Notes: generated by a model not told the origin, from the letters alone. A stretch of DNA of 64,000 nucleotides from Patescibacteria group bacterium (GCA_034716415.1 JAYEJB010000059.1:68-64067); one strand, 5' to 3'; counted from the stretch's first letter, positions 9,445 through 59,832 are shown. Numbers and translations: made by a program.

Positions 9445-9484
9445 TGAAATTCAGAACCTAGCTCTAAGAATCTCGTGGTTCGCC

Positions 9485-34814: not shown

Positions 34815-34909
34815 ACCCAAAACACGCGGAAAGACGCGAAAAAACAATCCCGTCTTGCCCCGTCTTGCCCCGTCTTTCCACATTTTGCCCCGTCTTGCCC
34901 CGTACATAA

Positions 34910-35566
34910 TCACCGCCAATTAAACATCCGTTCGACCACGTGAATCTCGCGCTCGTCTCCTCCCGCACTGGTCCACCTCACGTATGATCTGACGTCAATC
35001 CCGATCTTTTCGGTGGCGCAACTTTCACCGTCGGCCTTCAGTTCGTAATTGATGAAGTTGGACGTACTGCCGGCCACGACACTACAAAGCGCCCTGGTGT
35101 GCGTTATCCGACGAAAAAGCGTGGTATCGGTGCCAGCTGGCTGAGGAATCCCCTGAAGAAACATTCCCGGCTGTTCGGGTCCGCCGGTCACGACTTGTCT
35201 GTATACGGCGGTCTCGACATCATCGAGACTGCCTGCCCCGAAATCCATCGACCAGGACTTAGTGGCGGCATCGAATATGACGACGCCCGAGTAATCGAAG
35301 CCCGCACCCTCCAGACCCTGATCCCAGTCGTTTCCGGCCAGCCAGTTGGAATCGCGCATGGCCCTGACGACCTCCACGCCCTCTCTAGCCAGATTTGACG
35401 CGATGAGCCTGTTATCACTCTCCTTGGCCGCGTTGATCGAGCTTTGGACCAGCGTCAAAGCGGCCCCCACCGCAGTGACGATGATTCCTGAAGCCACGAT
35501 CGCCTCAAGCAAGCTCTGCCCGGCGCTACGCGCTTTCATATTTTTATGTGCGCTCCTGGAGAACAT
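34910..35566 (-). CDS. type IV pilin-like / pseudopilin
   Basis: 218 aa; N-terminal AGQSLLEAIVASGIIVTAV (G-x-S-L-L-E class III leader-like). Confidence 0.55.
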   Translation of the reverse strand: MFSRSAHKNMKARSAGQSLLEAIVASGIIVTAVGAALTLVQSSINAAKESDNRLIASNLAREGVEVVRAMRDSNWLAGNDWDQGLEGAGFDYSGVVIFDAATKSWSMDFGAGSLDDVETAVYRQVVTGGPEQPGMFLQGIPQPAGTDTTLFRRITHTRALCSVVAGSTSNFINYELKADGESCATEKIGIDVRSYVRWTSAGGDEREIHVVERMFNWR

Positions 35567-35573
35567 AGTGATG

Positions 35574-36206
35574 TCATTCCACTGAAACCAGTCCGGAAAT
35601 GCGGTTCACCGTCACTGATTGCTGCGTACCGGTATGTTGATGCTCGAGAACGATCGTCGCGATGCCGTTTACGATAGAATCGTTGAAATACATCTTGGGT
35701 TTCGGCGGTTCAAATATGATATCCAGAACGTTCGCGTCATTCGGGGTCACTGACAGGATATTGACGAACGGCCCCGATGATATCGCATCGAACCTGACCG
35801 CCTCACCTGACTCATATCGCTTGCTTCCGTTCGTGTCGGCGAATACGATCAGCTCACGATTTTCGCCGGAAAGAGTCGATATCCTGACTCCCCACGCATC
35901 AGGTATGTCCTTCGTGCAGACACCGCCGCCGCATTCCGAATCATTCCCTGACGGACAGACCTTGCCTTCGTCCGCACCGCCATGACAGAAAAAGATCGAA
36001 TATCCGGCAACGGCCTGCGTCTGCGCTCTCCTGACGGTCGATGCGACCAGCCGCGCAGACACCCTTAATTCATCACCTTGAGCACCGGCCCTGAAATTCG
36101 CCACGGCCATCGCAGTGATTACCGCGAATATCGACAGCGAAATCAACATCTCGATGAGTGTGAATCCGCGCTGCCCTCGTTTTCTTCGCATGAATGATTG
36201 CGACAT
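35574..36206 (-). CDS. pseudopilin (GspH/FimT-like)
   Basis: 210 aa; RGFTLIEMLISLSIFAVITAMAV prepilin motif. Confidence 0.7.
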   Translation of the reverse strand: MSQSFMRRKRGQRGFTLIEMLISLSIFAVITAMAVANFRAGAQGDELRVSARLVASTVRRAQTQAVAGYSIFFCHGGADEGKVCPSGNDSECGGGVCTKDIPDAWGVRISTLSGENRELIVFADTNGSKRYESGEAVRFDAISSGPFVNILSVTPNDANVLDIIFEPPKPKMYFNDSIVNGIATIVLEHQHTGTQQSVTVNRISGLVSVE

Positions 36207-36207
36207 A

Positions 36208-37008
36208 CTATAGCAGACCCATATACCAGCCCAGTATCACCTGACCGTAAAGCAAGGTGAATACAGTTCCCGCCGCCAGAAACGTACCGAACGGCAACTC
36301 GCTTTTCATGGTCTTCCTCTTGATGACCATCAACGAAACACCGATCAATGCTCCGGCGACATAAGCGATGAACAGCGCGACCAGGATTAACGGATATCCA
36401 AGGACTGCCCCCATGAACAGACCTAGATAGACATCACCGCCGCCCACCCATTTACCCTTGGACAATAGCCGCTGCAGCCAGAAGAATCCCCCGCCGATCG
36501 CGACACCGATCACAAGATGGGCGATATCCATCCCCAGTGCCACGTTCGCCGCAAGTGCGAGCACTGTAGCCGGAAGCGTAATCGAGCGCGGTATGAGCAT
36601 GTAGCGCAGATCGTAGACGAATACGATCACCAGTACGGAAACCACGAACCAGCCAAGAAGTAAGTTCGCGAACGCGACCGCCCCGATAGACTCGGCTCCG
36701 ACCGGAAAGGATGTCAATGCAACCATCAGAAACAACAGGCCCGTGACTGCCTCAATAAAGAAATATGACGACCCTATCGGCAGGAAACAGTAGCGACACT
36801 TCCCTCTCAAGAGAAGGTAGCTGAATAACGGGACTAGATCGAAGACCGACAGTCGATGCCTGCATTTCGGACAATAGGACCTGCCGTAAAGGAAGCTTTC
36901 CTTCGTCCGAAGGCGCCAGAGGACCGCGTTCAAGAAACTGCCGATCATGGCCCCAAACGCAAAAATAAATACCTGTAAAAATGGTAGCATACGACTGAAT
37001 GATACCAT
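36208..37008 (-). CDS. pilD: prepilin peptidase (A24 family)
   Basis: 266 aa; N-terminal CPKCRH..CRYC zinc motifs, polytopic, GGGDVYLGLFMGAVLG catalytic-Asp region. Confidence 0.85.
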   Translation of the reverse strand: MVSFSRMLPFLQVFIFAFGAMIGSFLNAVLWRLRTKESFLYGRSYCPKCRHRLSVFDLVPLFSYLLLRGKCRYCFLPIGSSYFFIEAVTGLLFLMVALTSFPVGAESIGAVAFANLLLGWFVVSVLVIVFVYDLRYMLIPRSITLPATVLALAANVALGMDIAHLVIGVAIGGGFFWLQRLLSKGKWVGGGDVYLGLFMGAVLGYPLILVALFIAYVAGALIGVSLMVIKRKTMKSELPFGTFLAAGTVFTLLYGQVILGWYMGLL

Positions 37009-37043
37009 GATTCTTACCTATATTATACCGGGGTTGAGGGTGT

Positions 37044-37138
37044 GGGAGCGTAGGGGTTAGAGAGTGAGAAAGTGAGAGGGTGAGAAAGATTCCAATCTCC
37101 GCTTTGTCCCCTTTCTCCACTCAATTTACCCCTTCTCC
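37044..37138. repeat. inverted copy of the GGAGCGGAGAAAGGG hairpin family plus (GTGAGA/GTGAGAAAG) short repeats
   Basis: CTCCGCTTTGTCCCCTTTCTCC is the reverse complement of the 25776/31136 motif. Confidence 0.6.
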
Positions 37139-37149
37139 AGCTCCCCACC

Positions 37150-37252
37150 TTTTTGTCATTGCGAGAAGGCCACAGCCGACGAAACAATCCCGTCGGCTTA
37201 AGCCTAAACCACGAGATTACTTCGGCCTTCGGCCTCGCAATGACAAAAAAGG
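37150..37252. repeat. GTCATTGCGAG-family hairpin repeat, copy D (most diverged)
   Basis: TTTGTCATTGCGAGAAGG..CAATCCCGTCGG..CTTCGGCCTTCGGCCTCGCAATGACAAAAAAGG. Confidence 0.8.
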
Positions 37253-37366
37253 AGCCCCGCTCTCAATCCCCGCCCCCCATAATAAAGACTTCCGCGGAGG
37301 GCGGAAGTCTTTATATTGCCGAATTCGGCCACGAACCGCCCTGTTCATACAAGGCGGCAACGAAGC

Positions 37367-37831
37367 TTATTGAATGCCGTTTGCACTGCCAGTGTGTGCT
37401 CCAGCGGTTAAGTCACCGACTGTGCCACCGATGCAGAACAAAAGCGTGTACCCACTACCACTGCCCGTTTGGGTATAGTCGTACGGGTTGGTTGACGTCG
37501 TACATGTACCGTCAGCAGGCGTAGGAGCGGACGGGACGAGACCCATGTAAGTGGTGTTTGAACCACATGTGGCCTGCCAGCCGTTCGAACACAGAGCCAC
37601 AGCTCCGGTTTCGCCGAGGTAACCGGTCGGATCCGCCGGGTAACCGTTCTGGTCGGCAAAGTACAGCTCAAGTGCGGTCTGGACCTGTTTGATGTCCGCG
37701 ACACGCTTCGAGTCACGAGATTTCTGACGAGCGCTGTTGAGAGCGACGACGGCCAGCGTTGAGAGCAGACCGATGATCGCGATAACGACCAGCAGCTCGA
37801 TCAGTGTGAAACCTTTATTAGTTTTGCGCAT
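37367..37831 (-). CDS. pilA: type IV major pilin (PilA-like)
   Basis: 154 aa; MRKTNKGFTLIELLVVIAIIGLLSTLAVVAL canonical class III signal plus N-terminal helix; Cys pairs in the C-terminal domain. Confidence 0.85.
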   Translation of the reverse strand: MRKTNKGFTLIELLVVIAIIGLLSTLAVVALNSARQKSRDSKRVADIKQVQTALELYFADQNGYPADPTGYLGETGAVALCSNGWQATCGSNTTYMGLVPSAPTPADGTCTTSTNPYDYTQTGSGSGYTLLFCIGGTVGDLTAGAHTGSANGIQ

Positions 37832-37852
37832 ATTACACCTCCCTTCGGGTTA

Positions 37853-37910
37853 GAGATTTTCCTCCAGACGTCTGGAGATGACATGAAATAAATATCCACA
37901 TGTCCTTTAA
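37853..37910 (-). promoter_or_regulatory. putative pilA promoter/leader: extended -10 (TGATATAAT on minus strand, 37902-37910) and 16-bp perfect palindrome CTCCAGACGTCTGGAG (37853-37868) in the 5' UTR; SD GGAGGTG
   Basis: Read directly from the reverse complement upstream of the pilA ATG. Confidence 0.3.
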
Positions 37911-37977
37911 ATTATATCACACACGCATAAGTTCGTTTATAGCTGGCGAGTCAAGTTGAGAAACCTGGGAGTGGTAC

Positions 37978-38068
37978 GGGCGGGAAGCGGGAAGCGGGAG
38001 GCGGGAAGAAGTGTCATAAAATTATGAATACCTCCCGCCTCAAGCCTCGTGCTTCCCGCTTCCCACCC
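37978..38068. repeat. (GGGAAGC)n / (GCTTCCC)n hairpin between pilC and pilA; probable terminator
   Basis: CGGGAAGCGGGAAGCGGGAGGCGGGAAG...CCTCCCGCCTC..CTTCCCGCTTCCC. Confidence 0.7.
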
Positions 38069-38145
38069 ACCGTTTCACAATAACAAAAAGACAGGATTGC
38101 TCCTGTCTTGCCCCTATCCTACTATCAAGCTATCCCGAAAGCTGT

Positions 38146-39354
38146 CTAGAACTGCGTGGCCATGTTGTACATTGGGAGGAGGATAGCGGCCACCATCACC
38201 CCCACAGCCACGCCCATAACCATCATTATCAACGGCTCAATGGCGTGTACAAGATTGGATACGGCGTGCGACAGCTCCCTGGTATAGAAATCCGTCAATT
38301 TAGCCAGGACCTCGGCCAAGCGCCCGGTCTCTTCCCCGACTGATATCATTTGGGGGACCATGTCCGGCATGGAACGCTCCCGAACGAATACAGAAGTCAG
38401 CGGATTACCATCCGAAACCTCCCTCTTCGTTTCCATCAGCTGCTCCCTATAATAGGCGTTACCCACGACATCGGAACTTATCTGCAGACCGCTCGGAATA
38501 TCCACACCCCCGGTAATCATCGTCCCGAAGCTCTGCGTAAACCGGACGACGTAAATCATTTTCAAGATATTACCGAAAATAGGAAGGTACAACTTATACT
38601 TGTCCCAGATATATCGCCCAGTCTTCGTGCTCGTCCACCACTTGAAACCCCCAATGGCGAGAAACGCCGCCACAATGATGTGAATCGCATAGACCTTGAA
38701 GAAGCCGCTGGTGACGATCAGCAGTTCCGTGGTCCACGGAAGGTCGGTACCGGATTGCGACAACACTTCGGTCAACTTGGGAATAACGAACGCCATCATG
38801 ACGAACCCGACGATGACCAGACCGATAAGAATGAATATCGGGTAGATCATCGCCCCCCGTATCCGCTGGTTCAGGTCGTAATCCTTCTCCATCTGATCAG
38901 CCAGATAGTTCATGATCTCTTCAAGCCGGCCAGTGGTCTCTCCAGACCGCACCATGTGGACGAAAAACTCCGAGAAGGCATTCGGGTGGCGCTCCAACGC
39001 GCCGGACAGCGCGGTTCCCGCCTCCACTTCATCCGCCACCTCCAGCAGGATCTTGTGCAATCGAGGATTCTTAGTCTGCCTGGCAACGGTCTGCAATGAT
39101 TGCACGAGCGGAACAGCGGCACCCATCAGCACTGAAAACTGGCGGGAAAAGATCACGATATCCTTGATCGGAATCTTGTTGAAGAACGGCAATTCAAACT
39201 CGAACACCCCGGCCTTCTTCGCCTCCTCCAACGAAACGACAAAAAAACCCCTATCCCTTAGGGTCTCCATAGCGATTTCCGATGTGGGTGCTTCAATAGC
39301 ACCTGTAATCGCCTGACCTTCCTTGTCTCTTACGCGGTAATCGAACCTTGGCAT
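38146..39354 (-). CDS. pilC: type IV pilus assembly platform protein PilC (GspF family)
   Basis: 402 aa; two T2SSF repeats, polytopic. Confidence 0.9.
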   Translation of the reverse strand: MPRFDYRVRDKEGQAITGAIEAPTSEIAMETLRDRGFFVVSLEEAKKAGVFEFELPFFNKIPIKDIVIFSRQFSVLMGAAVPLVQSLQTVARQTKNPRLHKILLEVADEVEAGTALSGALERHPNAFSEFFVHMVRSGETTGRLEEIMNYLADQMEKDYDLNQRIRGAMIYPIFILIGLVIVGFVMMAFVIPKLTEVLSQSGTDLPWTTELLIVTSGFFKVYAIHIIVAAFLAIGGFKWWTSTKTGRYIWDKYKLYLPIFGNILKMIYVVRFTQSFGTMITGGVDIPSGLQISSDVVGNAYYREQLMETKREVSDGNPLTSVFVRERSMPDMVPQMISVGEETGRLAEVLAKLTDFYTRELSHAVSNLVHAIEPLIMMVMGVAVGVMVAAILLPMYNMATQF

Positions 39355-39423
39355 GGGACTGGGGACGAATCCTTAATGCTGACAATCAATTGCCAGCTTT
39401 TCGCGGCGCCCTGAGTTTACCAA

Positions 39424-39813
39424 TCACTCGACCTTAAGTACCGCCTTGATCTTCTCGACCGCCTCCGCCGGCACGAAGTGCGCCTTTATGAGATAGTCTT
39501 GGGCTCCGGCTTCCAGGGCTTGTTCGATATCCTCTTTCTGGCCCAGGTTAGTAAGCATGATCACGGGAATACCCTTCGTCGCCTCGTCCTGCTTGAGCCG
39601 CTTGAGTGTCTCGAAACCGTCCAGCTTGGGCATCAGGACGTCTAGCAGGATTATATTGGGTTTCTCCTCGCCCGCTGCCTTCAGTCCCTCCTCACCGTCC
39701 CTCGCGGTCACGACCTGAAATCCCTCAAGCTCCAGCTTGGTCGCATAGATACCGGAAAGGAACGCGTCGTCGTCCACGATAAGCACCTTGTTTTTTCCGC
39801 CTTCTTCAGACAT
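39424..39813 (-). CDS. single-domain response regulator (CheY/PilH-like receiver)
   Basis: 129 aa; VLIVDDD, phospho-acceptor D in ILLDVLMP, T in MLTN, K in YLIKA. Confidence 0.85.
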   Translation of the reverse strand: MSEEGGKNKVLIVDDDAFLSGIYATKLELEGFQVVTARDGEEGLKAAGEEKPNIILLDVLMPKLDGFETLKRLKQDEATKGIPVIMLTNLGQKEDIEQALEAGAQDYLIKAHFVPAEAVEKIKAVLKVE

Positions 39814-39835
39814 AAGGTTTTCGTCTGGGGGTAAA

Positions 39836-41581
39836 TCAATCTGCGGTGACCCTCATCACCTCCTCAATTGTAGTTAATCCTTCCAAAGCTTTCAACAGCG
39901 CGTCCTGACGCAGGTTTATCATCTGCTGATCCTGGACCGCGGCCCGGACCTCCTCCGCCGGAAAACCTCTTGTCACCAACCGCTCCAACTTATCGTCGAA
40001 TACGATCATTTCTGCCATGGCCACACGACCGACGAAGCCGGAATCCTGGCATCTGATACACCCACGACCTTTATAGAATACGGGCGAAGCGGATTTGTCC
40101 AGTCCCACCTCCTGAAAATACTCGTCGGGAATCTCTTTCAGTTCTTCGATCACACCTCGCTCGACTTCAGCCGGCAGCGCCACCTTGGCCTTGCAACGCT
40201 CGCAGATCTTCCGAGCCAGACGCTGGGCTATGGCGACATTAATCGTAGCACCGAGCAGGAACGGTTCCACGTGCATGTCGACCAGGCGCGGAACCACGCC
40301 GACAGCATCGTTCGTGTGCAGGGTCGAAAAGATCAGGTGACCGGTAAGGGCGGCATGAACAGCCAGCTCAGCCGTCTCCCCATCACGGATCTCACCTACC
40401 ATTATGATGTTCGGGTCCTGACGCAATATGGAACGCAATCCGGCAGCGAACGTAAACCCTACAGCGGGCCTGATCTGTGACTGATTGACGCCCTTTATCT
40501 GATACTCCACCGGATCTTCGAGGGTCGAGATGTTCACGCCATCCTCATTCCTCATGTTCAGTATCGTAAAGAGTGTCGTCGACTTACCGCTACCGGTCGG
40601 ACCGGTGATCAGGAACATGCCGTGTGGCTGTCGAATCTGTTCTTTGATCAACTCGACGTATCTCGGACGGAAGCCGAGCTCATGAAGTTGCGGCACTCCC
40701 CTTGTCGTATCCAAGATACGCATGACGACCTTCTCGTTATCCGTCAACGGAAGGGTCGAGATGCGGAAGTCGATGATCCTGTCTCCGATCGTGTCCCGAA
40801 TCCTGCCGTCTTGCGGAATACGTGTCTCGTCTAGTTTCAGGTTCGCGAGAACCTTGATGCGCGAGACGATGGACGGATGGATATATTTCGGGAGAGTGAT
40901 GGATGTGCGCAATACCCCGTCCACACGATACCTCACCCTTGTCTCCTCTCCATAGGGTTCGATGTGAATGTCGGAGGCGTTTCCCTCGACGGCATGTTTC
41001 AGGATCACCGATACGATCCGTGAAACCGGCGCCCCTTTGATCACCTCTTCGATGTGCTCTTCCGCCTTGACTTCTAACTCCTCCGGCCCCTCGAACTTCT
41101 CCTTGGCCACTTCGAGGGCGTGTTCGACCTCCTTGCCGAGCTCCCGATATTTCTTGAAGGCTGCATCGTATGAAGCCTTGGATATGATGTGATACCGCGG
41201 CTTGAACTTGTTGGTCCTGGCGAGAAAATCAATCGCCTGCGCGGCCCGCATGGCCCGTGGCTCAAGCATGCCTATGCTCACCAGATCATCGACCTTGGCG
41301 AAAGCGACGGCCTTATTGTTGTCGGCGACCTCCTGCGGGATCAGGTTAAGCACGTCGAGCGCGATCTCCTGACCGACCAGATCGGCATAGGGAATACCCA
41401 AAACCGTGCCCCTGGCCTTCACCAGAAGCTCATCATCGACCAATCTCTTCTCCGCGATAAGCTTCTCGTAGGACTTACCGCTTTCACCCTGCTCCGTGAT
41501 CAGCTCCTTGTATTGCTCCTCTGTTATCTGACCGGTCTCGAGCAGGATGTCCAAGAGTTCTGTGCCCTTCTTATTCGCCAT
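39836..41581 (-). CDS. pilB: type IV pilus assembly ATPase PilB (GspE family)
   Basis: Walker A GPTGSGKSTTL, Asp/His boxes, tetracysteine CERC..CIRC; start set at MANKKGTELL (the track ORF's first 50 aa overlap the upstream gene). Confidence 0.9.
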   Translation of the reverse strand: MANKKGTELLDILLETGQITEEQYKELITEQGESGKSYEKLIAEKRLVDDELLVKARGTVLGIPYADLVGQEIALDVLNLIPQEVADNNKAVAFAKVDDLVSIGMLEPRAMRAAQAIDFLARTNKFKPRYHIISKASYDAAFKKYRELGKEVEHALEVAKEKFEGPEELEVKAEEHIEEVIKGAPVSRIVSVILKHAVEGNASDIHIEPYGEETRVRYRVDGVLRTSITLPKYIHPSIVSRIKVLANLKLDETRIPQDGRIRDTIGDRIIDFRISTLPLTDNEKVVMRILDTTRGVPQLHELGFRPRYVELIKEQIRQPHGMFLITGPTGSGKSTTLFTILNMRNEDGVNISTLEDPVEYQIKGVNQSQIRPAVGFTFAAGLRSILRQDPNIIMVGEIRDGETAELAVHAALTGHLIFSTLHTNDAVGVVPRLVDMHVEPFLLGATINVAIAQRLARKICERCKAKVALPAEVERGVIEELKEIPDEYFQEVGLDKSASPVFYKGRGCIRCQDSGFVGRVAMAEMIVFDDKLERLVTRGFPAEEVRAAVQDQQMINLRQDALLKALEGLTTIEEVMRVTAD

Positions 41582-41588
41582 AATGAAA

Positions 41589-41879
41589 TCACTCCTCTTC
41601 GTCGGTCTTCGGTGTCCTGAACGGCACCTCGCTGCCGACATTGCCGACATTCCAGGGGTCGACCGGCGCGGCAAATGTATCCAGACCCTTGTAGACGCCC
41701 CGATTGAAAAGGTTATCCCGTTCTCCCTCATCGAATATCAGCTGCGGGAGTGCCGGAGGAAGCTGAACCGCCATACCGGGTTTTGGGACGAAACGATGTC
41801 TATTGAAGAACACCAATACACCAGCGATGACCACCAGTAACGCTATGAATAGTACAATCTGTTTTTGCTCTTTATTCAT
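41589..41879 (-). CDS. small membrane-anchored protein in the pilus operon
   Basis: 96 aa; single N-terminal TM (IVLFIALLVVIAGVLVFF); acidic C-tail. Confidence 0.5.
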   Translation of the reverse strand: MNKEQKQIVLFIALLVVIAGVLVFFNRHRFVPKPGMAVQLPPALPQLIFDEGERDNLFNRGVYKGLDTFAAPVDPWNVGNVGSEVPFRTPKTDEEE

Positions 41880-41893
41880 GGTCTATACATCGA

Positions 41894-42508
41894 CTAAATC
41901 CTGTCCGGAAGCAGCGGCGCCGTCGGGGCCGCCTGAACAGGAGTGAACCCCGGCTCTATGAAATATGCTGTCAGAATCACGCTGTAATCCGTCCCGCCGG
42001 ACGAAAAAGTCACTGACTCGATATCGGACACCCGCACGAGACGTTCGAGATCATTCAGTAAATTCTGGAATTCCTGATACGTGCCGCCCGCGAGACTGAG
42101 TGAAATACGCACTTTCTTGACCCCATGAGGACCGGTCGTCGCTTCGTCGACGACCGTATCTATCGAAACCAGCACAAGGCCGTTGCCCTGAGCTATCGCA
42201 TCCATCTGCACGTATAGGTTCGGCTCGTCCGGCTTGTCTGGGAGTATCGTCGGTATCTTACTGACATGATCCTTGTGAACTTGCTCGAATTGCTCTTTTT
42301 CTTCGATGATTCGACTCAAATAAGCCTGATAGTCACCTAACCGCGCCTCCAAGGGCTTCAGGTCAAGCGATCCGCCGGGCATCAGATGACCTATCTTCGG
42401 CATGAACAGAAGGAAATATGCCCCCACGCCGTACGACAAGACGACCACCACGATTATGACCGGGAGATACTTTACGATCGGCGATTTCTCCTTCTTCTCC
42501 TCCTCCAT
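41894..42508 (-). CDS. pilO: PilO-like pilus assembly protein
   Basis: Single TM then periplasmic domain; position between pilN-like and pilB; start set at the internal Met to avoid overlap. Confidence 0.5.
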   Translation of the reverse strand: MEEEKKEKSPIVKYLPVIIVVVVLSYGVGAYFLLFMPKIGHLMPGGSLDLKPLEARLGDYQAYLSRIIEEKEQFEQVHKDHVSKIPTILPDKPDEPNLYVQMDAIAQGNGLVLVSIDTVVDEATTGPHGVKKVRISLSLAGGTYQEFQNLLNDLERLVRVSDIESVTFSSGGTDYSVILTAYFIEPGFTPVQAAPTAPLLPDRI

Positions 42509-42509
42509 A

Positions 42510-43283
42510 TTACTGACCGTTACCGTTTCCGGAACCGTTGACGACGACGTCTCCGTTTCCACCGGCCCCTGCCTCGTTCCATACGTCCTGATTCAACTTA
42601 AGCACCATCCCGAACGATACCCCTAGGATATTGCCGACCTCATCGATATTGGCCGATGCTGAAGAGGTTATCACTTCATCGACCATAGGATCCTCCCGAA
42701 GGATGACGATCTGCTCCGCCACGTCGCGGTACGTCTGCCCCATCGCATCAAGTGTAACCACACCACTGGCATAGTCACCGGAAAAGTTCAGAAAAAGCAC
42801 GGAAGGCTTGGTGCGGCTCTGGATGTAATCGAATAACGAAGACCAGTAGACGTGACTGTCCAGGAGGTCGGTGGCCGCGCGGACGCGCGAATCGAAAAGA
42901 GTCATGGTCTTCGTGCTGTCCTCGCTTTCCCGTATCTGCTGAGTCACTTCCGTTAGCGTCTGCTGAAGTTCCTGTCTGTGCACATTGGCCTCGGCTTCCC
43001 GCTTGGACACGAACAGGAACGCACCGCCGATGATGATGGTTTCGATGATGAGCACGGCGAAAAGAATGACCAATTGTCGACGCATGTCCGCCCCCTTCTC
43101 CTCTCTTTCCCCGGATGGCATCAAAGAAACCCGAAGACCCCCCATGAATCCGGAGGGTTCCGCCTCTTTCTTTTCGGGTGAGGGCGGAGGCGACGGGATA
43201 GGCAAAGCTCCGGAACCGGTCGGCTTTTCGGCCGGTCCTGCGCCTTCCTGCCCTTTTGCGTTGTCCCCTTGAAAAAGGTCCAT
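42510..43283 (-). CDS. pilN: PilN-like pilus assembly protein
   Basis: 257 aa; cytoplasmic N-terminus, single TM (LVILFAVLIIETIIIGGAFLFV), coiled-coil periplasmic region; directly after pilM. Confidence 0.55.
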   Translation of the reverse strand: MDLFQGDNAKGQEGAGPAEKPTGSGALPIPSPPPSPEKKEAEPSGFMGGLRVSLMPSGEREEKGADMRRQLVILFAVLIIETIIIGGAFLFVSKREAEANVHRQELQQTLTEVTQQIRESEDSTKTMTLFDSRVRAATDLLDSHVYWSSLFDYIQSRTKPSVLFLNFSGDYASGVVTLDAMGQTYRDVAEQIVILREDPMVDEVITSSASANIDEVGNILGVSFGMVLKLNQDVWNEAGAGGNGDVVVNGSGNGNGQ

Positions 43284-43296
43284 GCTTATTGAGTCA

Positions 43297-43372
43297 GGGA
43301 GTACAGGAGTATGGAAGTATAGAAGTAATTCTTTCTCGCTTCTATGCTTCTGTACTCCTGAACTTGTCCCTA
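43297..43372. repeat. CAGGAGTATGGAAGTATAGAAGT...CTTCTATGCTTCTGTACTCCTG hairpin (copy 2 of the 3291-3358 family) between pilM and pilN
   Basis: Inverted repeat read directly. Confidence 0.7.
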
Positions 43373-44473
43373 TTCCATCTCTGACATGGCGAGGCCGACC
43401 GCCACGGAGAATCTCGTCCCGATTTCATCGAGCACAGGCCTCAAATCACCCGGGTAGGCCACGCGTGCCCATGGATCCCCCACGTACACCTTCATGTTCA
43501 GCTGACCGGAAAAATATCCGGCAAGTGCCGGCAGTGCGGCCGTACCGCCAGTCAGTATGATCTTTTCGACACCCTTCTCTTCCCCTTCAGCCGCCTGACC
43601 CGTGTAGAGATTGATCGAATACTGCAGCTCGGTGACCATGGGCGCCATCGTCTTCTCGAAGATCTTCGGCATACCCTCACCCGGATAGAGAGTCGATACG
43701 CTCTTGATGTCGGTCTTCATCTCCTCGGCCCCTTTCAGATCCATGGACAACGTCTTAGCCATCGCCCTGGTCAGACTGACACCGCCCATGTCGACGCTTC
43801 TGGTGACGTACGGGATTCCGTTCTCGACTATGATGATGTTCGTCCGAGACGCCCCGATGTCCACGAGCATTGTCGTCGAACGGTCCTTGCCGACTAACGA
43901 CCGAATGAGAGCCAGTGTTTCGGTCTCCAGGCTGGCCAGATCAAGACCGGTCCGCCCGAAAACCTTGATGTATTTCTCTATCATCGCCTTCGACGCGCCG
44001 GTAATCAGAACCTGGACTGTCTTTTTCTCCTCATCTCCTTTTCCCTTTCCCCCTGTCTTCTTCTCCTTCTTAGCTTTCTTGCCATACCCGTTAATGGGCT
44101 TGAAATCGAGTTGCATCTCGTCAAGCGGGACCGGTATGAGCTTCTTGGCCTGCCAGCGCGCCGCGTCATTGATCTCCTTTTCGTTTCCTCTCGGCACGGT
44201 CACGACGGAACTGAATACGGAAGCTACCGGCAGACCCGTAATCGCCCTGCTGGTGGTCACCTTCGCTTTCGCGAGCATCTTCTTGAGCAGGTCTGCCGCC
44301 TCTTCGGGTGCATCCACCAGATTCAGCGGTTCTGCTCCCGGCATTCGTTCAGTAAAAGCATAAGTGAAGAGCTTGGCCCTTCCCTTCTCACTTTTAAGCT
44401 CGACTAATTTTATACCCCCGGAACCGAAATCGATGCCGAGGTAACTTTTTTTCTTCGAACCGAACAGACCCAT
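43370..44473 (-). CDS. pilM: type IV pilus assembly protein PilM (actin-like ATPase)
   Basis: 367 aa; YLGIDFGSGGIKLVEL N-terminal actin-fold phosphate-1 motif. Confidence 0.85.
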   Translation of the reverse strand: MGLFGSKKKSYLGIDFGSGGIKLVELKSEKGRAKLFTYAFTERMPGAEPLNLVDAPEEAADLLKKMLAKAKVTTSRAITGLPVASVFSSVVTVPRGNEKEINDAARWQAKKLIPVPLDEMQLDFKPINGYGKKAKKEKKTGGKGKGDEEKKTVQVLITGASKAMIEKYIKVFGRTGLDLASLETETLALIRSLVGKDRSTTMLVDIGASRTNIIIVENGIPYVTRSVDMGGVSLTRAMAKTLSMDLKGAEEMKTDIKSVSTLYPGEGMPKIFEKTMAPMVTELQYSINLYTGQAAEGEEKGVEKIILTGGTAALPALAGYFSGQLNMKVYVGDPWARVAYPGDLRPVLDEIGTRFSVAVGLAMSEME

Positions 44474-44556
44474 AAATCAGACGTGATTAGTTGTCGTTCC
44501 TAATCAAGGTCATTATACACCATTTAAGCGTGGTGTGCATGGTTATACACATGGTG

Positions 44557-44662
44557 GAGTCGAAGAGTCTAAAAGTCTAAAAGTTAAAAAAGGTTTCCGT
44601 TCGCGAAACAGTACAAAAAATCAACACTCTTAGTCTTTTCGACTTTTAGACTTTTTATTACG
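44557..44662. repeat. AGTCTAAAAG / CTTTTAGACT inverted-repeat hairpin (family also at 53815-53888, 57400-57535, 59731-59770)
   Basis: GGAGTCGAAGAGTCTAAAAGTCTAAAAG...CTTAGTCTTTTCGACTTTTAGACTTTTT. Confidence 0.7.
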
Positions 44663-47600
44663 GCGTATCAGTAATCACCGGCAGTGACTTCCCGATATCT
44701 TCAAACCCAGGCGGCGGATTGACGACCGCCCGGCCATCATAGATGAACCGCTCCGACCCCATGTCCACACTCCTTAAGTTGCGCTTGAAGTGGAACTTAC
44801 GCGCTATCGCCAGCCCGTAGACAGTGAGTGGGGTTTCGCTTGCGGGAACCGGCGGCGTTACGGTGTAGATTCCTTCATTGCCCCCGACGAAGAACGCGCC
44901 CACCAGTGCCTGGACCCCCTGATCGATGAAGACATGCCCCTTGGATCCATCTGCCGCCGGCAGGACGATCCACCCGACAGAAGCGAGCTGTGAGAGCCTC
45001 GACACCGTTCCCGGTCCGTAGTCCATGTCACCGGTGATGTAGAGATCGCCACCGACGATAAGGATGGTCCCGTCCCCTTTGTTGCTGAGCGCGCCGTTAG
45101 CGAAAGTGTGGGCTCCGATGGTCGCGTCACCGCCGTCAGTGACGGCGATCACCCGACCGTTCAGGGGATTCCCCATCGTAGTCAAAGTGGCTTCGAGCTC
45201 GGCCGACGTGACGGTCGTGACATCACCATACCGGCCGGCCAGCAGACCATTGACATCAATCCTGCCCAGGATGGTCGCATAGGCGTTCTCCTGCTTCGGT
45301 CGCACGAAATCCACGGTCGAATCCGCTTCCTCACTACAAAGCTCGCTCGTGAAATTCAGTATCGAACTCTTGGCGATGATACAGTAGGTAGCATTAAACT
45401 TGGCGGACGGCGGATCTTCCGGCGCGTAGATCTTCTTGCCCGAAAACACGTTACCGTAGGTAGTCTCCAGCCAGGGGAACATCAGGTTATCGCAAATGTT
45501 GGCGCCCAGACAGGGTCCGTCGACGGTTGCCGCGGCGCAATCCGCGTCCCGTTTGCAGGCCGTGGTGCCATCTCCGGCGCACAGACCAAAACCACCGCTA
45601 CCGTCACAGAGGCCCCCGACACCGGCTAACACACAGTCATTATCCGTAATGCAACCGATGGATAAATCGTTATCGCAATATTTGCATTCCGGGTCATCGA
45701 AACAGACCTGACCACCATAGAGACACAACCCCCACGGGCATTTGCACTCCTGAACAGGACCCGTGTCAGGACAGCACCAGGTATTCCCCGGACAGACCGC
45801 ATCGTCCGAATTATAACCGCAGATGTAATCCCGATCTACTTCGCATCTGCCGGTGTGGCTCTCAGGCGGCCCGCAAGCACCTGGCTCGCACTGCTCCCCG
45901 ACACCGTTGGCGTCCTCGTCATCCTGCGACGGGTTGGCCAGGTTGACGCAGTTGTCGCAGGCCTGATGCGAGGTCCAATAAAGAGTCGTGTACAGCGCTT
46001 CAGCCGCGCCATCCCGGTCGAAATCGGCCCAAGAACAGACATCCTCCGGATCGCCCGGTGCCGGCGTGCTGTTACAGACGTACATGACCTGACGGTTCGA
46101 TTCGACGGTATCACCATCCTCGTCCGTAGCCCTGAAAGTCACGAAGTATTCACCGTCCGCATACGGCCAGCCGGTCAGCGTGGACAGGTCAAGGCTCAAA
46201 TTCTCGCAAATCAAGCTATTTCCGGCGGGCAATCCGACAAAGGATGTCGTATTCAACGGTCCATCCATCACCGCTCCAAACTTGTCCCGAATGAGCACTT
46301 CACAGTTCGGATTAAAATTTCCGCTGGCCGCGGTCAGGAATTCTGTCCTATCGAGGGCTAACGTGTGCTTATTCGTACGGAAAAAGGGAGCCGACGTAAT
46401 GATGCCGTCGGCGGGATACGCGATCAGCTGATCGACCACCTCTGGCGTGACGTTGATGGTAAAATTCTGCACCGGACTCGCGGCCCCGACATTATTGACG
46501 CCGTCCTCGGCGAACGCCGTGACTGGAACGACCCCATCATCGAAAAACTGGATCGGTCCCGTGACGCAGTCGCTATCCGGAGTATCATAATCGATACCAT
46601 CGACCGTCACCGTGCAGGCGCAGATGCCGCTCGTGTCCAGACCGACACCCGGATCCTGCGCAATCGCCCGAAAACGCCGCCCTTCCGCACGTCCGACCCT
46701 GATCGTACCGGCCGGACTCTCTCCCTCGGCCTCCACATCGGACACTATCGGCGGAGTCCCCTCGAACAACGTGTAATCGAAGACCTCATCTCCGTACTCC
46801 GGCACGTCACCCGGCAGTTTCAGGACAGAGATACTGATCGGATAATCCTGGAGCGGTGTCGGTATGGCAGTGGTCGGACAAGTGAACGTCAAATCAAAAC
46901 CGTCGACCGTCTGGCCGGCCAAATTGAAGATCTGGACGACATGACCCGGCACGGCGATGAAATCCAGCTTGGCGCTGTTGGTACCGGCGAGAACGCATGG
47001 CGAGCCAGCGGTCTTCGGCTGGGCATAAGGATAATAATCGGCCGGATTGGTATTATCTCCGATCACGATCGTCAAAGAGGAATAATTACCGGCTCCGATA
47101 AGGCGGATAATGTCGGTAGAATTGACATGCGTGGCCTCGGTCGCCGCCGCGGTCACTGTCGGGTCGATGCCGGCGAACGCACTGAACGGACCCAGGCGCG
47201 GGACTATCTGGCAGACGGCATCCGTCCAACTCTTGGCCGCGCAGGCTCCCACAACACCCCAACAATCCGGATCCACGCAATCGATCAGGCCGTCTCCGTC
47301 ATTATCGTAGACGTCGCCGCACATCACGAGGGTGTTCTCCGACGCGGAGCACTGAGCGAAACCGGCGCAGTCGCCGTCCGCACAATCGGTATCACCATCT
47401 CCGTCATTATCGAACAGGTCCTGGCACATATCGGCTGAATTTTCCGTCGCACCGCAACGGGCCGCATGTCCGAGATAACCGAGACTGGCGTCAGGTCCGG
47501 GGCCACCGACCTGGCAGTCCGGATCCACACAATCGGTGTCACCGTCATTGTCGTTATCCTGACTGTCAGCGCATGAACCGTAGACGACATCCTCGCGCGA

Positions 47601-49004
47601 CGGACACGGTCCGCAATTTCCGAACTGACTGCCGCAGTCTCCGTCAGCACAGTCCGTATCGCTGTCACCGTCGTCATCGAAGCTGTTAGCACATTTCTGG
47701 TATCGCTCGACGATGTCGAATTCCTTCTCGTAACAGATGAGCACTCCGTTATCCATACCGACACAGTCCGGATCCGCGCAGTTGAACAGCCCATCCAGGT
47801 CGTCGTCCAGGGTGTTGAAGCACTGTAGATCAGCGTCGCCCCCGGCCGCGTCACGATGCTCCTGCGACGGACAAGCAGGATCACCGGCACAGTCGTAGTC
47901 GCTACAGTCACGCCCGGTCAACGGATTGGCGTCCCACGCGGAATCGAAAGGACTGTCCTCGTCGTTATCCACCCCATCAGCGCAAAACCCGGCTTCACTG
48001 TCCAAACAGCCGTATGCCACCTGTTTCCAGCACGTCCGCGCGGGATTTCCGACCGGATTGGCGGAAACGTTGTCCACGCAATCAATCAGGCCGTCACCGT
48101 CGTTATCGAACGTATCGCCGCACGTCGCGGCTCCCCACTCATTCTCGAATTGGCAATTCGCTAAAGGTGCCAGCCTTCCCGGAAGGCCGTCGCAGCTGTC
48201 ATCCTGGCAGTCGGTCAGACCATCGCCGTCATTATCGAAACCGTCGGTGCAGGTCACCTCGGGATCCTCGCAAATCGAACCGTCGGCGACCCGACCGATT
48301 TCGCCCGTACACACCGCCGCGTCGAGACAATCGCCGTAAAAATTGATGTCGTTGTCCACAGTGTCGGCGCACGGATCGCTCATGCCGGCAATCGCGCCCC
48401 ACACCTCGCTCTCGTCGCCGTTCGACGGGGCGTTGGTATCGACGTAAAAATCGAGAAGACTTTTGCTACCTCCTTCACCATTCTGGAAAACCGAAATATC
48501 AAAATTATACGCACCTTCGGCCAAACCGGAGAATGTCACGGTCAGCACCTGATCGACGATACAACCGATACAACCGTCGGCGTCGAGCCGCTCATAAGCC
48601 GTCTGCGCGGGATTGATATCCTCACTCGGCAGGAATACGGCGCCGTTCGTGGGATTGGCGTACTTGTCCCAACTATCGAAAGCCGGAAGGCTGTGGATAA
48701 TATGCGAAATCAACGTGGCTTCGCTGTAGACACCTCCATTAAGGCGAATTTTCAGGGTTCCGTTGGGCCTGATGTGCTCCGTATAGGCATAATTGATGGT
48801 CTGTCCGCCGACCACGAATGAGCCGACGCAGACGTTGCCGGGGCAAGGGGTGGGTGAGACGGTCGCTCGTGCATCGGTCGGCATGAACAACAAGAAAGTC
48901 ATCAGAATCAAACCGCATAACGGGAACAGCGGGAAGGAGCGGGAAGGAGCGGGAAAAGAGCTTCTTTTCCCGCTGTTCCCGCTGTTCCCGCTATATTGAC
49001 TCAT
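44658..49004 (-). CDS. giant (1448 aa) secreted protein with >10 Cys-rich thrombospondin-type-3-like Ca-binding repeats (C..DxxDNDGDGxxDCxDxDC)
   Basis: Repeated CGDTFDNDGDGLIDCVDNV / CQDLFDNDGDGDTDCADGDC motifs; hydrophobic signal region; the 5' end of the CDS reads through a (GGGAAGGAGC)n hairpin; start ATG overlaps the upstream gene's stop (ATGA). Confidence 0.75.
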   Translation of the reverse strand: MSQYSGNSGNSGKRSSFPAPSRSFPLFPLCGLILMTFLLFMPTDARATVSPTPCPGNVCVGSFVVGGQTINYAYTEHIRPNGTLKIRLNGGVYSEATLISHIIHSLPAFDSWDKYANPTNGAVFLPSEDINPAQTAYERLDADGCIGCIVDQVLTVTFSGLAEGAYNFDISVFQNGEGGSKSLLDFYVDTNAPSNGDESEVWGAIAGMSDPCADTVDNDINFYGDCLDAAVCTGEIGRVADGSICEDPEVTCTDGFDNDGDGLTDCQDDSCDGLPGRLAPLANCQFENEWGAATCGDTFDNDGDGLIDCVDNVSANPVGNPARTCWKQVAYGCLDSEAGFCADGVDNDEDSPFDSAWDANPLTGRDCSDYDCAGDPACPSQEHRDAAGGDADLQCFNTLDDDLDGLFNCADPDCVGMDNGVLICYEKEFDIVERYQKCANSFDDDGDSDTDCADGDCGSQFGNCGPCPSREDVVYGSCADSQDNDNDGDTDCVDPDCQVGGPGPDASLGYLGHAARCGATENSADMCQDLFDNDGDGDTDCADGDCAGFAQCSASENTLVMCGDVYDNDGDGLIDCVDPDCWGVVGACAAKSWTDAVCQIVPRLGPFSAFAGIDPTVTAAATEATHVNSTDIIRLIGAGNYSSLTIVIGDNTNPADYYPYAQPKTAGSPCVLAGTNSAKLDFIAVPGHVVQIFNLAGQTVDGFDLTFTCPTTAIPTPLQDYPISISVLKLPGDVPEYGDEVFDYTLFEGTPPIVSDVEAEGESPAGTIRVGRAEGRRFRAIAQDPGVGLDTSGICACTVTVDGIDYDTPDSDCVTGPIQFFDDGVVPVTAFAEDGVNNVGAASPVQNFTINVTPEVVDQLIAYPADGIITSAPFFRTNKHTLALDRTEFLTAASGNFNPNCEVLIRDKFGAVMDGPLNTTSFVGLPAGNSLICENLSLDLSTLTGWPYADGEYFVTFRATDEDGDTVESNRQVMYVCNSTPAPGDPEDVCSWADFDRDGAAEALYTTLYWTSHQACDNCVNLANPSQDDEDANGVGEQCEPGACGPPESHTGRCEVDRDYICGYNSDDAVCPGNTWCCPDTGPVQECKCPWGLCLYGGQVCFDDPECKYCDNDLSIGCITDNDCVLAGVGGLCDGSGGFGLCAGDGTTACKRDADCAAATVDGPCLGANICDNLMFPWLETTYGNVFSGKKIYAPEDPPSAKFNATYCIIAKSSILNFTSELCSEEADSTVDFVRPKQENAYATILGRIDVNGLLAGRYGDVTTVTSAELEATLTTMGNPLNGRVIAVTDGGDATIGAHTFANGALSNKGDGTILIVGGDLYITGDMDYGPGTVSRLSQLASVGWIVLPAADGSKGHVFIDQGVQALVGAFFVGGNEGIYTVTPPVPASETPLTVYGLAIARKFHFKRNLRSVDMGSERFIYDGRAVVNPPPGFEDIGKSLPVITDTP

Positions 49005-50569
49005 AGCTTCGTCACATCATCATTCGCGTCACAACACAGGTCTCCCGCTTGATATCCGGGCGCGAAACAATCATCGATTTCGCTCACGTCAAATTCCGCG
49101 GCACTGGTGCAATCGCAATCGTAATAACCGTCATGATCGTCACCGTAAGCGCACTCCGCGCCGTTTACAATATGGAAGATGCCGCTGCTCTCGGAAACGG
49201 GTTGTCGGGTGCAACATAGATCACCGAGTTCATACGTGACTTCCGAACAATCGGCGATGCCGTCGCCGCCCATACCCCAGACGCATTCAGTCCGCGGCCT
49301 GGTCTGACAACGGTAGGAGATGCCCTGGCAATAACGATCGGCGCAGTCGATCTGACCGTTACCGTCGTTGTCGATACCGTCGTGACAGTCGCCCTCAATC
49401 GGCACGCCCCGCCGCATGACAAGCGAAAAGGAGGCGTCACCGGTGAAGTCGCACCAGGCGGCGTTGTTGAAATAACTGGCCGGAAAACCTGAATTGCAAC
49501 GTAATGCCTTGTATTGGTCGTCGCCCAGATCCAGCCCGGACCAGTTATTGGAGTGCGTGAAGATCGGCCACTTGCGTATCTTCTCGCGCAGGGTGAGCCG
49601 ACAAAATCCCGCCGCTTCGTCGCAGAACCGTTGCGCCGCACAGTCCGCATCAGTGACGCACGCATCCGCGGTCAGGATGCTGCCGATACGACAGCCGTCG
49701 ATGAACCAAAGCTGATCCGGATCCACGAAATCGGCGGGCTGCATCACGTATTCGAGATAGTCGTAGTCGTCACGAACCACATCCGGCATGACCTTGCTCA
49801 ACTTCCGGGTCGATGCGTCCGGAACGCTGATATCGCACTCCAGAAGCGCGTCCTTCGGCGCGAACAGATGATCGAAACCGATTCGGAAAGCGGTCAAGTG
49901 CGTACCCACGAGACCAGGATTGTCAGGTTCGTACACCCCCTCCGGACGCAAGACGATACCTAACGACGAAACAGTCCATCTCGTTTCCGCGTAACTGGAG
50001 TCCACCCAGCCCGCACCGGTATCCGCGTCGGTCATACCCCAGGCCCAGTTGTCGTTGAAAGCGCCTTTGTCGAAGACGCCGTTCGTGGTGTCGAGTGATA
50101 CATGATAGTTGGATGACGCGCATTCGGCCAGATTCTCGCAATTCAACGATATCCAACCGTCATCTCCGAGCGAATCGATCTTGGCCCAGCCCCAGAGCTG
50201 GTCCTGTTTACCACCGAAATCGTCACGGAACTGCGCGTATGAAGCGCCACCTTCGGGCGTAGTGCCGCCACAAGTCGTGCCGAAACAGACCCAGCCCATG
50301 GTTTCTGACCAGGCCCAGCCGGTCATGTCGGCCCAACCGAAGAAGCCAGCCGTGTCGGTGAGCGTGACACCATAATCGATGGTCGCGCAGGTCGCTGTAT
50401 TGGTGCAGTTCAGGGAAATCCAGCCGATCGTCCCGGACCAAAGCCAGCCGTAGACGTTGTCCGCGAGACCCGCAAACGCGGGCTTGGGCGTGAACAACGC
50501 AAACGAAGCGACCATCACCGCGATAGCCACCAAAATGCGCGTATTGTAACGACGCGCGTGTATATCCAT
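49001..50569 (-). CDS. secreted Trp- and Cys-rich repeat protein (522 aa)
   Basis: Signal peptide ..VAIAVMVASFALFTPKPAFA; GW(I/V)S..C / GWAWSETMGW repeats; one CHDGIDNDGNGQIDCADRYC repeat of the same type as the downstream giant protein. Confidence 0.7.
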   Translation of the reverse strand: MDIHARRYNTRILVAIAVMVASFALFTPKPAFAGLADNVYGWLWSGTIGWISLNCTNTATCATIDYGVTLTDTAGFFGWADMTGWAWSETMGWVCFGTTCGGTTPEGGASYAQFRDDFGGKQDQLWGWAKIDSLGDDGWISLNCENLAECASSNYHVSLDTTNGVFDKGAFNDNWAWGMTDADTGAGWVDSSYAETRWTVSSLGIVLRPEGVYEPDNPGLVGTHLTAFRIGFDHLFAPKDALLECDISVPDASTRKLSKVMPDVVRDDYDYLEYVMQPADFVDPDQLWFIDGCRIGSILTADACVTDADCAAQRFCDEAAGFCRLTLREKIRKWPIFTHSNNWSGLDLGDDQYKALRCNSGFPASYFNNAAWCDFTGDASFSLVMRRGVPIEGDCHDGIDNDGNGQIDCADRYCQGISYRCQTRPRTECVWGMGGDGIADCSEVTYELGDLCCTRQPVSESSGIFHIVNGAECAYGDDHDGYYDCDCTSAAEFDVSEIDDCFAPGYQAGDLCCDANDDVTKL

Positions 50570-50668
50570 ATTCGGATGGATTATACCACTGAAAATAAGC
50601 GTGCGCCACGCTTTCCGTGGATAAAAAAAGACCGACAGCTGACGGCCTTATTGTTGACGCGTAATTCA

Positions 50669-53615: not shown

Positions 53616-53814
53616 GACTTGTCCCTGCTTCTCTGGCGAATCCGCAAAGGCAGGGATAGACCCTGCTACTACGATGTGTCATCGATCAGAACATGGATAA
53701 CCCCGGCGCGACGGTAAAGACGATCATCGACAACACCGCGCAGACCGAGATGACGATCCAGCCGAACCTCTTCAACTGACGCCGACGAATTTTTCTGTTG
53801 AATATTTTCATATC

Positions 53815-53888
53815 GGAGTTAAAAAGCTAAAAAGTTTAACAGCTTAACAGCTTTTGGACTTTTTGGCTGTTAGGCTTTTAAGCTTTAT
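53815..53888. repeat. GCTAAAAAG/CTTTTTGGC and TTAACAGC/GCTGTTAG inverted-repeat hairpin (AGTCTAAAAG family)
   Basis: Read directly in the recJ-end / lepA-end spacer. Confidence 0.6.
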
Positions 53889-59727: not shown

Positions 59728-59832
59728 GGTTAGAGTTAAAAAAGTCTAAAAGTCGAAAAGACGAAAAGCATTTTTTAAATATTCCATCCCCGCTTCCCTG
59801 CCCACCGAAGCTTCAGCGTAGGTGGGTCCCCG

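Follow-up and report, generated by a model that had tools for sequence, protein, structure and literature searches.

A secreted Patescibacteria protein family encoded before pilM, enlarged and split into two genes ahead of a type IV pilus cluster

What are the two large proteins whose genes stand immediately ahead of the type IV pilus genes in a member of the Patescibacteria, and do they have anything to do with the pilus? The locus lies in a stretch of 64,000 nucleotides (nt) from a Patescibacteria group bacterium (GCA_034716415.1, JAYEJB010000059.1:68-64067), which we analysed as a whole and refer to as the window; positions are counted from its first letter. Two overlapping open reading frames (ORFs), here called A and B, precede a pilus cluster, all genes in this part of the window being on the minus strand. 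Our results suggest that A and B are the two parts of what was once a single pilus-linked protein. The elements concerned are as follows, with residue numbers in amino acids (aa).

50569..49001, minus strand: ORF A, 522 aa, locus tag U9Q03_05040, annotated as hypothetical.
49004..44658, minus strand: ORF B, 1448 aa, locus tag U9Q03_05035, annotated as hypothetical.
33376..44473, minus strand: type IV pilus cluster, with pilM, a pilN-like gene, pilO, a 96-aa ORF, pilB, a response-regulator gene, pilC, a pilin gene, pilD and four minor-pilin-like ORFs.
49970..50467, minus strand: tryptophan-rich repeat domain of A, aa 35-200, the N-terminal module of a single-chain family protein in about 99 relatives.
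44661..45497, minus strand: conserved C-terminal domain of B, aa 1170-1448, ending in a near-invariant YDGR..NPPPG..D..K.LP.

The two frames overlap by ATGA, and B (stop at 44658) lies directly upstream of pilM (start at 44473) on the same strand. A first-pass annotation, made from the sequence alone, had described a 522-aa and a 1448-aa ORF with this overlap, and the coordinates are confirmed. It had also placed them directly upstream of pilM-N-O-pilB-response regulator-pilC-pilA-pilD-pseudopilins on the same strand, with which the family matches agree: PilM_2 (PF11104), PilO, T2SSE (PilB), T2SSF (PilC) and peptidase A24 (PilD). As judged by their conservation, A and B are real genes, since there are about 50 full-length homologues of B (77-33% identity) and about 65 of A, found on the same contigs.

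The wider family was delimited with the C-terminal domain of B. An exhaustive search with residues 1170-1448, clustered at 50% identity, returned 608 clusters, in which the domain was always at the extreme C terminus; in the listed matches the alignment ended within about 10 residues of the end of the protein. Proteins carrying the domain are 270-2700 aa long, typically about 600 aa. A genome scan with one genome per species gave 54 loci, all in metagenome-assembled genomes of Patescibacteria type, and 48 of these, having at least 1.5 kb of downstream sequence, could be tested for linkage. The gene pilM was present on the same strand within 3 kb in 47 of the 48 testable loci and within 400 nt in 46. 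About 38 loci hold single-gene forms that end 2-35 nt before pilM, and about 10 of the 54 hold split forms like that of the window. The complete order, A-B-pilM-pilN-pilO-small ORF-pilB-(response regulator)-pilC-pilin-pilD-minor pilins, recurs in five loci (L001, L002 at 35% identity, L003, L007 and L008). Hence, the recurrence of the pair before pilM in related genomes, which the first-pass annotation had named as one check on its proposal, was found for the pair and, far more widely, for the family defined by the C-terminal domain.

The association with pilM persists in altered surroundings. In one locus (L004) a 29%-identical homologue of B stands directly before pilM, with no A homologue and with wholly different genes upstream. 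In another (L011, and likewise L042) the family gene is separated from pilM by a 387-aa ORF and a gene for an S26 signal peptidase, which hints at dedicated processing of the secreted protein. In the locus L005 a 3133-aa ORF and YidC follow the gene of one relative (P0056) instead of pilM. Identity across lineages is 35-37% for the end domains, 48% for PilM and 53% for PilB, and the faster evolution of the end domains is as expected for exposed proteins. Taken as genomic evidence, these observations strongly support a functional link of the family to the type IV pilus cluster.

By the same comparisons the family is an undescribed, secreted and Patescibacteria-wide one, with the C-terminal domain of B as its defining domain. 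Neither of the two conserved end domains has a Pfam match above threshold, an NCBIfam match or a match to a solved structure, and the relatives are all annotated as hypothetical. A profile of the C-terminal domain, used to search a word-indexed protein database, brought up close and unnamed members of the family and nothing else. Our literature search found no account of a pilM-upstream protein in bacteria of the candidate phyla radiation (CPR), of the acidic double-disulfide repeat described below or of DUF7305, which is not proof of their being unpublished.

The relation of A to B becomes clear from the single-gene forms. About 99 retrieved proteins (median 611 aa) join the tryptophan-rich domain of A and the C-terminal domain of B in one chain; most relatives are such single proteins, 460-720 aa long, and consist of a Sec signal, the tryptophan-rich domain, a variable spacer and the C-terminal domain. 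In forms of 460-510 aa the two domains abut, and some forms have one to five acidic repeats between them. The single-chain genes fill the same slot, rnhA-X-pilM. Because these relatives carry both end domains at the same genomic position, A and B are best read as two halves of one ancestral gene and not as independent proteins. In the window the tryptophan-rich domain is on A and not on B, and the pair jointly has the layout of the family. Measured against the single-chain forms, about 1,500 residues are inserted between the end domains in this lineage, and the gene is cut into two ATGA-overlapping ORFs; the insert holds nine acidic disulfide repeats, about four immunoglobulin (Ig)-like domains, a motif like thrombospondin type 3 (TSP3) and Cys-rich knots. 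A programmed -1 frameshift at the A/B junction was also weighed and dismissed, because B begins with a signal sequence of its own and the TGA is not preceded by a slippery heptamer.

Several further relatives support the reading of A and B as one gene. One protein (P0054) passes from a region like A 206-421 (34% identity) directly into the N-terminal domain of B, with no signal sequence between them. Another (P0062, locus L006) is collinear with B 36-1040 (30% identity, E = 1e-86) and lies in an archaeal-type neighbourhood with Rad50/Mre11/HerA-type genes. Indeed, the stalk cassette (A 206-421 plus B 36-1040) is a single chain in archaeal-type contexts (L006/P0062, P0054 and P0063), P0063 being labelled Nanoarchaeota in one source and P0054 ending in a C-terminal membrane anchor and not in the pilus-linked domain. 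Only this middle cassette, and neither end domain, was seen away from pil genes. These proteins hint that CPR bacteria and DPANN-like archaea have exchanged surface modules. A 599-aa protein (P0185, locus L019) joins an A-type tryptophan-rich domain (57% identity) to the Cys-rich and C-terminal part of B (49% identity) and looks like a re-fusion by deletion of about 1,350 residues within the split-type clade; if so, the middle would be dispensable for the core function.

The layout of A comprises a Sec signal (aa 1-33), four tryptophan-rich repeats (aa about 35-200), a beta-sandwich (aa about 205-340), a short helical part and a Cys-rich tail with one acidic repeat (aa 394-417). Repeats of a GW type had been noticed in the 522-aa protein at first pass; four were found, at residues about 38-200, of the form GW.WS...GW(I/V)..NC....C...Y.V, and residues W87, W93, W128, W139, W177, W188 and W198 are invariant in 60 homologues. 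Against the NCBIfam repeat family NF033662, A scored 32.8 bits in one stretch, below the 41-bit cutoff. An AlphaFold2 model from the 60 homologues had a predicted local distance difference test score (pLDDT) of 86.2 and a predicted template modelling score (pTM) of 0.80, and Foldseek found no match to it with E < 0.001 in the PDB or in viral structure libraries. The tryptophan-rich module is also present in many unrelated secreted proteins, and in one protein (P0209) a type IV pilin N terminus is fused to four repeats of the type found in A; this fusion implies that the module can be pilus-borne. The N termini of A and B themselves, where basic residues are followed by a hydrophobic segment and then an AxA site, appear to be Sec-type signals. 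In a Pfam search no prepilin motif was found in either, N_methyl (GFxxxE) being matched in neither A nor B; it is matched in four ORFs neighbouring them.

B consists of the following parts ahead of the C-terminal domain.

48864..49004, minus strand: signal sequence of B, aa 1-47, with K/R residues, then FPLFPLCGLILMTFLLFMP, then ARA|T, read from the sequence.
47262..48371, minus strand: nine acidic double-disulfide repeats of calcium-binding type, B aa 212-581, from NF033662 and a regular-expression listing.
46035..47237, minus strand: tandem Ig-like beta-sandwich domains, about four, B aa 590-990, of adhesin-stalk type, in AlphaFold2 blocks with pLDDT >90.
45885..46037, minus strand: single TSP3-like motif, B about 1016-1040, ADFDRDG...CDNCVNLANPSQDDEDANGVGEQCEP, fitted by eye.

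Homologues of B all carry a signal of 25-60 aa ahead of a conserved A(V/I)xPxPCxGNVC. The NCBI annotation of B (1414 aa) begins 34 codons past the ATGA start (48903-49004); the ATGA start fits better, because the later one drops the basic n-region present in all homologues. Membership of NF033662 is defined by a whole-protein score above 41 bits and repeated four-Cys acidic units of about 32 aa. B belongs to it, with 117.9 bits over nine stretches; six of its repeats are canonical (C..D..D[ND]D.D...DC.D.DC), and three are degenerate or have an insertion. In a sequence search of the PDB, the C-rich calcium-binding domain of teneurin-4 (7plp) matched B 560-582 with E = 8.6e-5, and the searches of A and B found nothing beyond this repeat match. 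Because of the teneurin match, a calcium-binding character of the repeats is plausible. The first-pass description of more than ten calcium-binding-type repeats was thus a slight overcount that was plausible as to type, and the label thrombospondin-type-3-like did not stand: the repeats are those of NF033662, and membership of A or B in the thrombospondin families (PF02412 TSP_3, PF18884 TSP3_bac) was rejected, there being no Pfam match even at E <= 10. The single motif at about 1016-1040, which we take to be TSP3-like from its consensus, is not matched by Pfam TSP_3 either; across 52 homologues its Cys, Asp, Asn and Gln residues do not vary.

The remainder of B was modelled with AlphaFold2 (residues 590-1448, pLDDT 83.4). 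Foldseek matched this model to the BIg domains of SiiE (1.2e-8), CFA/I pilins, cadherins, FN3 domains and an ice-binding adhesin, and the Ig tandem dominates these matches. Residues 1040-1170 form a Cys-rich part of lower confidence. In the last 275 residues or so, the secondary structure of the model (DSSP) consists of triplets of short strands and is beta-helix-like; the final 11 residues are disordered. The profile of the C-terminal domain found in the PDB only chance-level beta-helix matches, to T4 gp5 and a gp5-containing chimera (E = 3.4-5). Among 29 family members, DUF7305 (PF23981) matched four (best E = 9.6e-5; per-protein best 21.1 bits against a cutoff of 27) and choice-of-anchor A (TIGR04215) matched one (E = 4.2e-5); the C-terminal domain of the window itself matched neither. 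No secretin or N0/STN domain (PilQ/GspD) was found in A or B with Pfam or NCBIfam.

Parts of this architecture are familiar from other systems. PilY1/PilC of Pseudomonas, Neisseria and Myxococcus are likewise large Sec-exported non-pilin proteins of a pilus cluster, with a variable N-terminal part, a conserved C-terminal domain and calcium-binding motifs (PMC11623550). However, A and B have no sequence or fold relation to them: PilY1 and Neisseria_PilC gave no Pfam or NCBIfam match in either, and the modelled C-terminal domain is beta-helix-like (DSSP), not a beta-propeller. Moreover, the family gene stands before pilM and not with the minor pilins, and it is split here into two ORFs. The nine repeats of B match both NF033662 and the teneurin C-rich domain (7plp), but such a repeat is a mere spacer module in B and says nothing about the end domains or a link to the pilus. 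With thrombospondin type 3 repeats, B shares Asp-rich DxDxDG-type loops framed by Cys, and the segment at about 1016-1040 fits CDNC...NP.Q.D.D..G.G..C, whereas the nine main repeats are of a different curated family. The Ig tandem at B 590-990 and the extended, calcium-associated stalk architecture resemble SiiE and the MpIBP/RTX (repeats-in-toxin) adhesins; B differs in having only about four Ig domains, in being disulfide-rich and in having a Sec signal, and neither RTX nonapeptides nor a signal for type 1 secretion was observed in it. Modular pilins, such as PilB and PilC of Streptococcus sanguinis, carry grafted adhesive modules, and the tryptophan-rich module of A is grafted onto a pilin N terminus in P0209, but A and B themselves have Sec-type and not prepilin signals. 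New here is a large secreted accessory protein that is linked to the pilus, non-homologous to the known ones and present in a split, expanded form; the repeats and the Ig stalk are of types already known.

Whether A and B are expressed together with the pilus genes depends on the signals around them.

50597..50649, minus strand: two terminator-like hairpins with T-runs, between the 179-aa ORF and A.
50580..50588, minus strand: extended -10-like motif TGGTATAAT, 11 nt before the ATG of A, with comparable motifs at the same place in relatives.
44563..44655, minus strand: long AT-rich hairpin after the stop codon of B, z = -3.75, no U-tract.
44512..44539, minus strand: promoter-like site before pilM, TGCACA-16-TATAAT, with GGTGTATAAT at 44512-44521.

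The two hairpins with T-runs upstream indicate that a transcription unit begins at A. The start codons of A and of its homologues (L001, L007 and L008) are preceded, at a distance of only about 11 nt, by extended -10 motifs (TGnTATAAT), and the same motif stands before the pilin gene (37919). This spacing suggests a leaderless or near-leaderless mRNA for A. A -10-like motif, AAAAGGTGTATAAT/ACT, lies 40-85 nt before pilM in 12 of 12 split-type loci examined, as well as in the window. Here pilM probably has its own promoter, as far as the motif tells; some read-through from A/B into pilM may occur. The conservation of this motif in split-type loci makes strict co-transcription with A/B doubtful. 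The single-gene forms, by leaving no room for a promoter, imply that the ancestral gene was co-transcribed with pilM. Hence, the earlier view of A and B as the head of the pilus operon describes the ancestral arrangement, but it is at odds with the promoter-like motif before pilM in all the split-type loci.

The AT-rich hairpin behind B was rejected as a classical intrinsic terminator, because it lacks a U-tract and belongs to a repeat with 8-nt units that is dispersed in several copies; the hairpin is present in L007 and absent in L008. The units of these intergenic hairpins, AGTCTAAA / ACTTTTAG, match 11 times in the window against 0.02 expected. Copies lie at 44558-44655, about 53810-53880, about 57420-57515 and 59743-59768, between genes of the same strand and without a U-tract. 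They may be elements of repetitive extragenic palindromic (REP) type or unconventional terminators.

What, then, do A and B do? They are probably an extracellular accessory or adhesin of the type IV pilus. The fuller reading that we favour, and to which we would give an even chance, is that the pair is a pilus-associated device for contact or adhesion, the enlarged and split form of the pilM-linked family. A and B would both be exported by Sec and would re-associate outside the cell into a long stalk stiffened by Ca2+ and disulfides. The C-terminal domain would dock this stalk on the pilus system, either at the pilus tip or minor pilins or at the PilN/PilO ectodomains, while the tryptophan-rich module would bind a glycan or cell-wall ligand. 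The pair would then do the work of PilY1/PilC-type accessory proteins without being homologous to them. We favour a contact device because the tryptophan-rich module occurs on the pilin P0209, because the insertion is adhesin-like and because the end domains have diverged more quickly than PilM and PilB. The first-pass proposal of pilus-associated adhesins co-expressed with the pilus machinery thus keeps its pilus linkage (47 of 48 loci), and strict co-expression becomes doubtful in view of the promoter-like motif before pilM; the role at the pilus tip is conjecture.

A number of observations weigh against the contact device. A and B have no pilin N terminus. The family gene adjoins pilMNO and not the minor pilins, and PilY1-type adhesins are usually encoded beside the minor pilins that they bind. 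The end domains are about equally conserved across lineages, a pattern no less suited to a part of the pilus machine than to a host-specific adhesin. The gene order around rnhA-X-pilM is broadly shared within the clade, and the linkage could in part be inherited with it; pilM, moreover, has a promoter-like motif of its own in split-type loci. The similarity of the C-terminal domain to DUF7305 and choice-of-anchor A is below threshold. Finally, we infer the re-association of A and B solely from the fused relatives.

The strongest alternative, which is possible though clearly less probable than a contact device, is that the family protein serves the pilus machine as a fixed component outside the cytoplasm and is not a pilus-borne adhesin. 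In such a part the tryptophan-rich repeats would bind the cell's own wall and the C-terminal domain the PilN/PilO ectodomains, so as to anchor or frame the passage of the pilus through the wall and S-layer; its role would be like that of the TsaP, PilP and PilQ accessory domains in diderms, with the inserted stalk as an outward decoration. Several features are as a machine part would have them: the gene lies immediately before pilM-N-O, at 2-35 nt from pilM in single-gene forms, and not next to the minor pilins; its occurrence in 47 of 48 genomes resembles that of a core component; both end domains are kept across the whole clade; and short tryptophan-rich repeats recall wall-binding repeat modules. 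CPR bacteria are also without PilQ (10.1101/335083). A part embedded in the wall, however, would not be expected to tolerate an adhesin-like insertion of 1,500 residues together with a split, and the tryptophan-rich module is found fused to a pilin and in many unrelated secreted proteins. To our knowledge, moreover, the type IV pili of Gram-positive bacteria need no component of this kind. A statement that spans both readings, and that we make only tentatively, is that the family is a so far unrecognised core extracellular pilus component, serving host contact at the tip or the coupling of PilMNO to the wall in secretin-less cells; A/B would be its stalk-inserted split variant, with a cassette shared with giant surface proteins from genomic contexts of archaeal (likely DPANN) type.

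It is improbable that the two proteins are giant adhesins of the ordinary surface type, or S-layer-like, and that their adjacency to pilM is frozen gene order with no mechanistic tie to the pilus. The murJ-lepA-recJ-rnhA-X-pilM region is indeed syntenic in most loci, split-type loci have the promoter-like motif before pilM, P0056 is followed by a 3133-aa ORF and YidC, and archaeal-type contexts that lack pil genes also hold the stalk cassette. Yet the adjacency to pilM persists where the upstream genes differ (L004, L011/L042), the spacing of 2-35 nt in single-gene forms implies co-transcription with pilM, and unrelated neighbours at 35% identity would be expected to show a far looser linkage than 47 of 48, while only the middle cassette, and not the end domains, is found away from pil genes. 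The close spacing and the adjacency kept in changed contexts thus make pure synteny without function unlikely.

A separate question is raised by the start of B, which lies in a region of strong secondary structure.

48917..48994, minus strand: strong hairpin beginning at the G of the start codon of B, arms 48917-48935 and 48976-48994, with the start codon of B at its foot.

The hairpin contains tandem units of 10 nt (2.8 copies, 48928-48955) and 9 nt (2.9 copies, 48967-48992). The structure that had been seen within the first 30 codons of B is real: the RNA has a minimum free energy of -58.3 kcal/mol (z = -7.8), and none of 200 shuffles folds as well. A comparable hairpin with a different left arm and an intact frame is present in L007 (77% identical) and a smaller one in L008 (75%); among nine split-type loci of more distant relatives, most give z values around 0, and the strongest values are -2.3 and -1.8. 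The ATGA overlap is kept in most split-type loci. Translation of B may well be coupled to that of A, keeping the two halves in step, and a hairpin of -58 kcal/mol at the start codon would block independent initiation of B. It is unlikely that the hairpin is instead a phase-variation switch for B, in which gain or loss of a 10-nt unit shifts the reading frame (48917-48994). Phase variation often targets surface adhesins, both repeats sit in the first 30 codons, and a change in copy number of the 10-nt unit would, as read from the sequence, alter the frame; but a repeat of fewer than three copies is short for a slipped-strand switch, the hairpin is limited to the closest relatives, exact-pattern scans of metagenome contigs found no variant alleles and indeed no matches, and a stem that starts at the start codon after ATGA fits enforced coupling or control of B initiation. 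The hairpin of L007, with its different left arm, points to selection on structure and not on copy number.

The neighbouring genes may be described briefly. Upstream of A lie the 179-aa ORF, RNase H, recJ, lepA and murJ. Within the pilus cluster, the PilN-like ORF is 257 aa and the pilin 154 aa; the minor-pilin-like ORFs (210, 218, 243 and 271 aa) are GspH-, PilV- and GspJ-like, and ligA follows them. The 96-aa ORF between pilO and pilB (41589-41879, minus strand) has no family match. An ORF of 83-137 aa occupies this slot in L001, L002, L004 and L007-L011, but not in L003 or L012, and may be an unrecognised component of the pilus machine. A stand-alone response-regulator receiver gene lies between pilB and pilC (39424-39813, minus strand); it is at the same position in L001-L003, L009 and L010 and absent in L004.

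Elsewhere in the window, positions 4000-10000 form an island of low GC content (0.37-0.45 against about 0.56), with a 1019-aa ORF without family match, a 180-aa ORF and a Vsr mismatch endonuclease (8237-8650). This island was probably acquired horizontally and is possibly of restriction/modification type. A further giant ORF (9485-14080, minus strand, 1531 aa) has right-handed beta-helix, M6-metalloprotease-like and OmpL47/Big_13 domains, and a TGNTATAAT motif lies just upstream of it, at 14115.

The type IV pilus is regarded as the chief organ of host contact and DNA uptake in the ultrasmall, episymbiotic Patescibacteria, and the parts recognised in it so far are the pilins and the PilB/C/D/M/N/O core. 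A family without annotation, whose gene precedes pilM in almost all genomes of a large clade, offers a concrete candidate for an adhesin or a wall-coupling part of this organ. It supplies defined domains for such roles, a tryptophan-rich domain that may bind glycan or wall and a C-terminal domain that may dock to pilins or to PilN/O. The form found here shows that a protein of this family can be extended by about 1,500 residues of calcium-binding-type and Ig-like modules.

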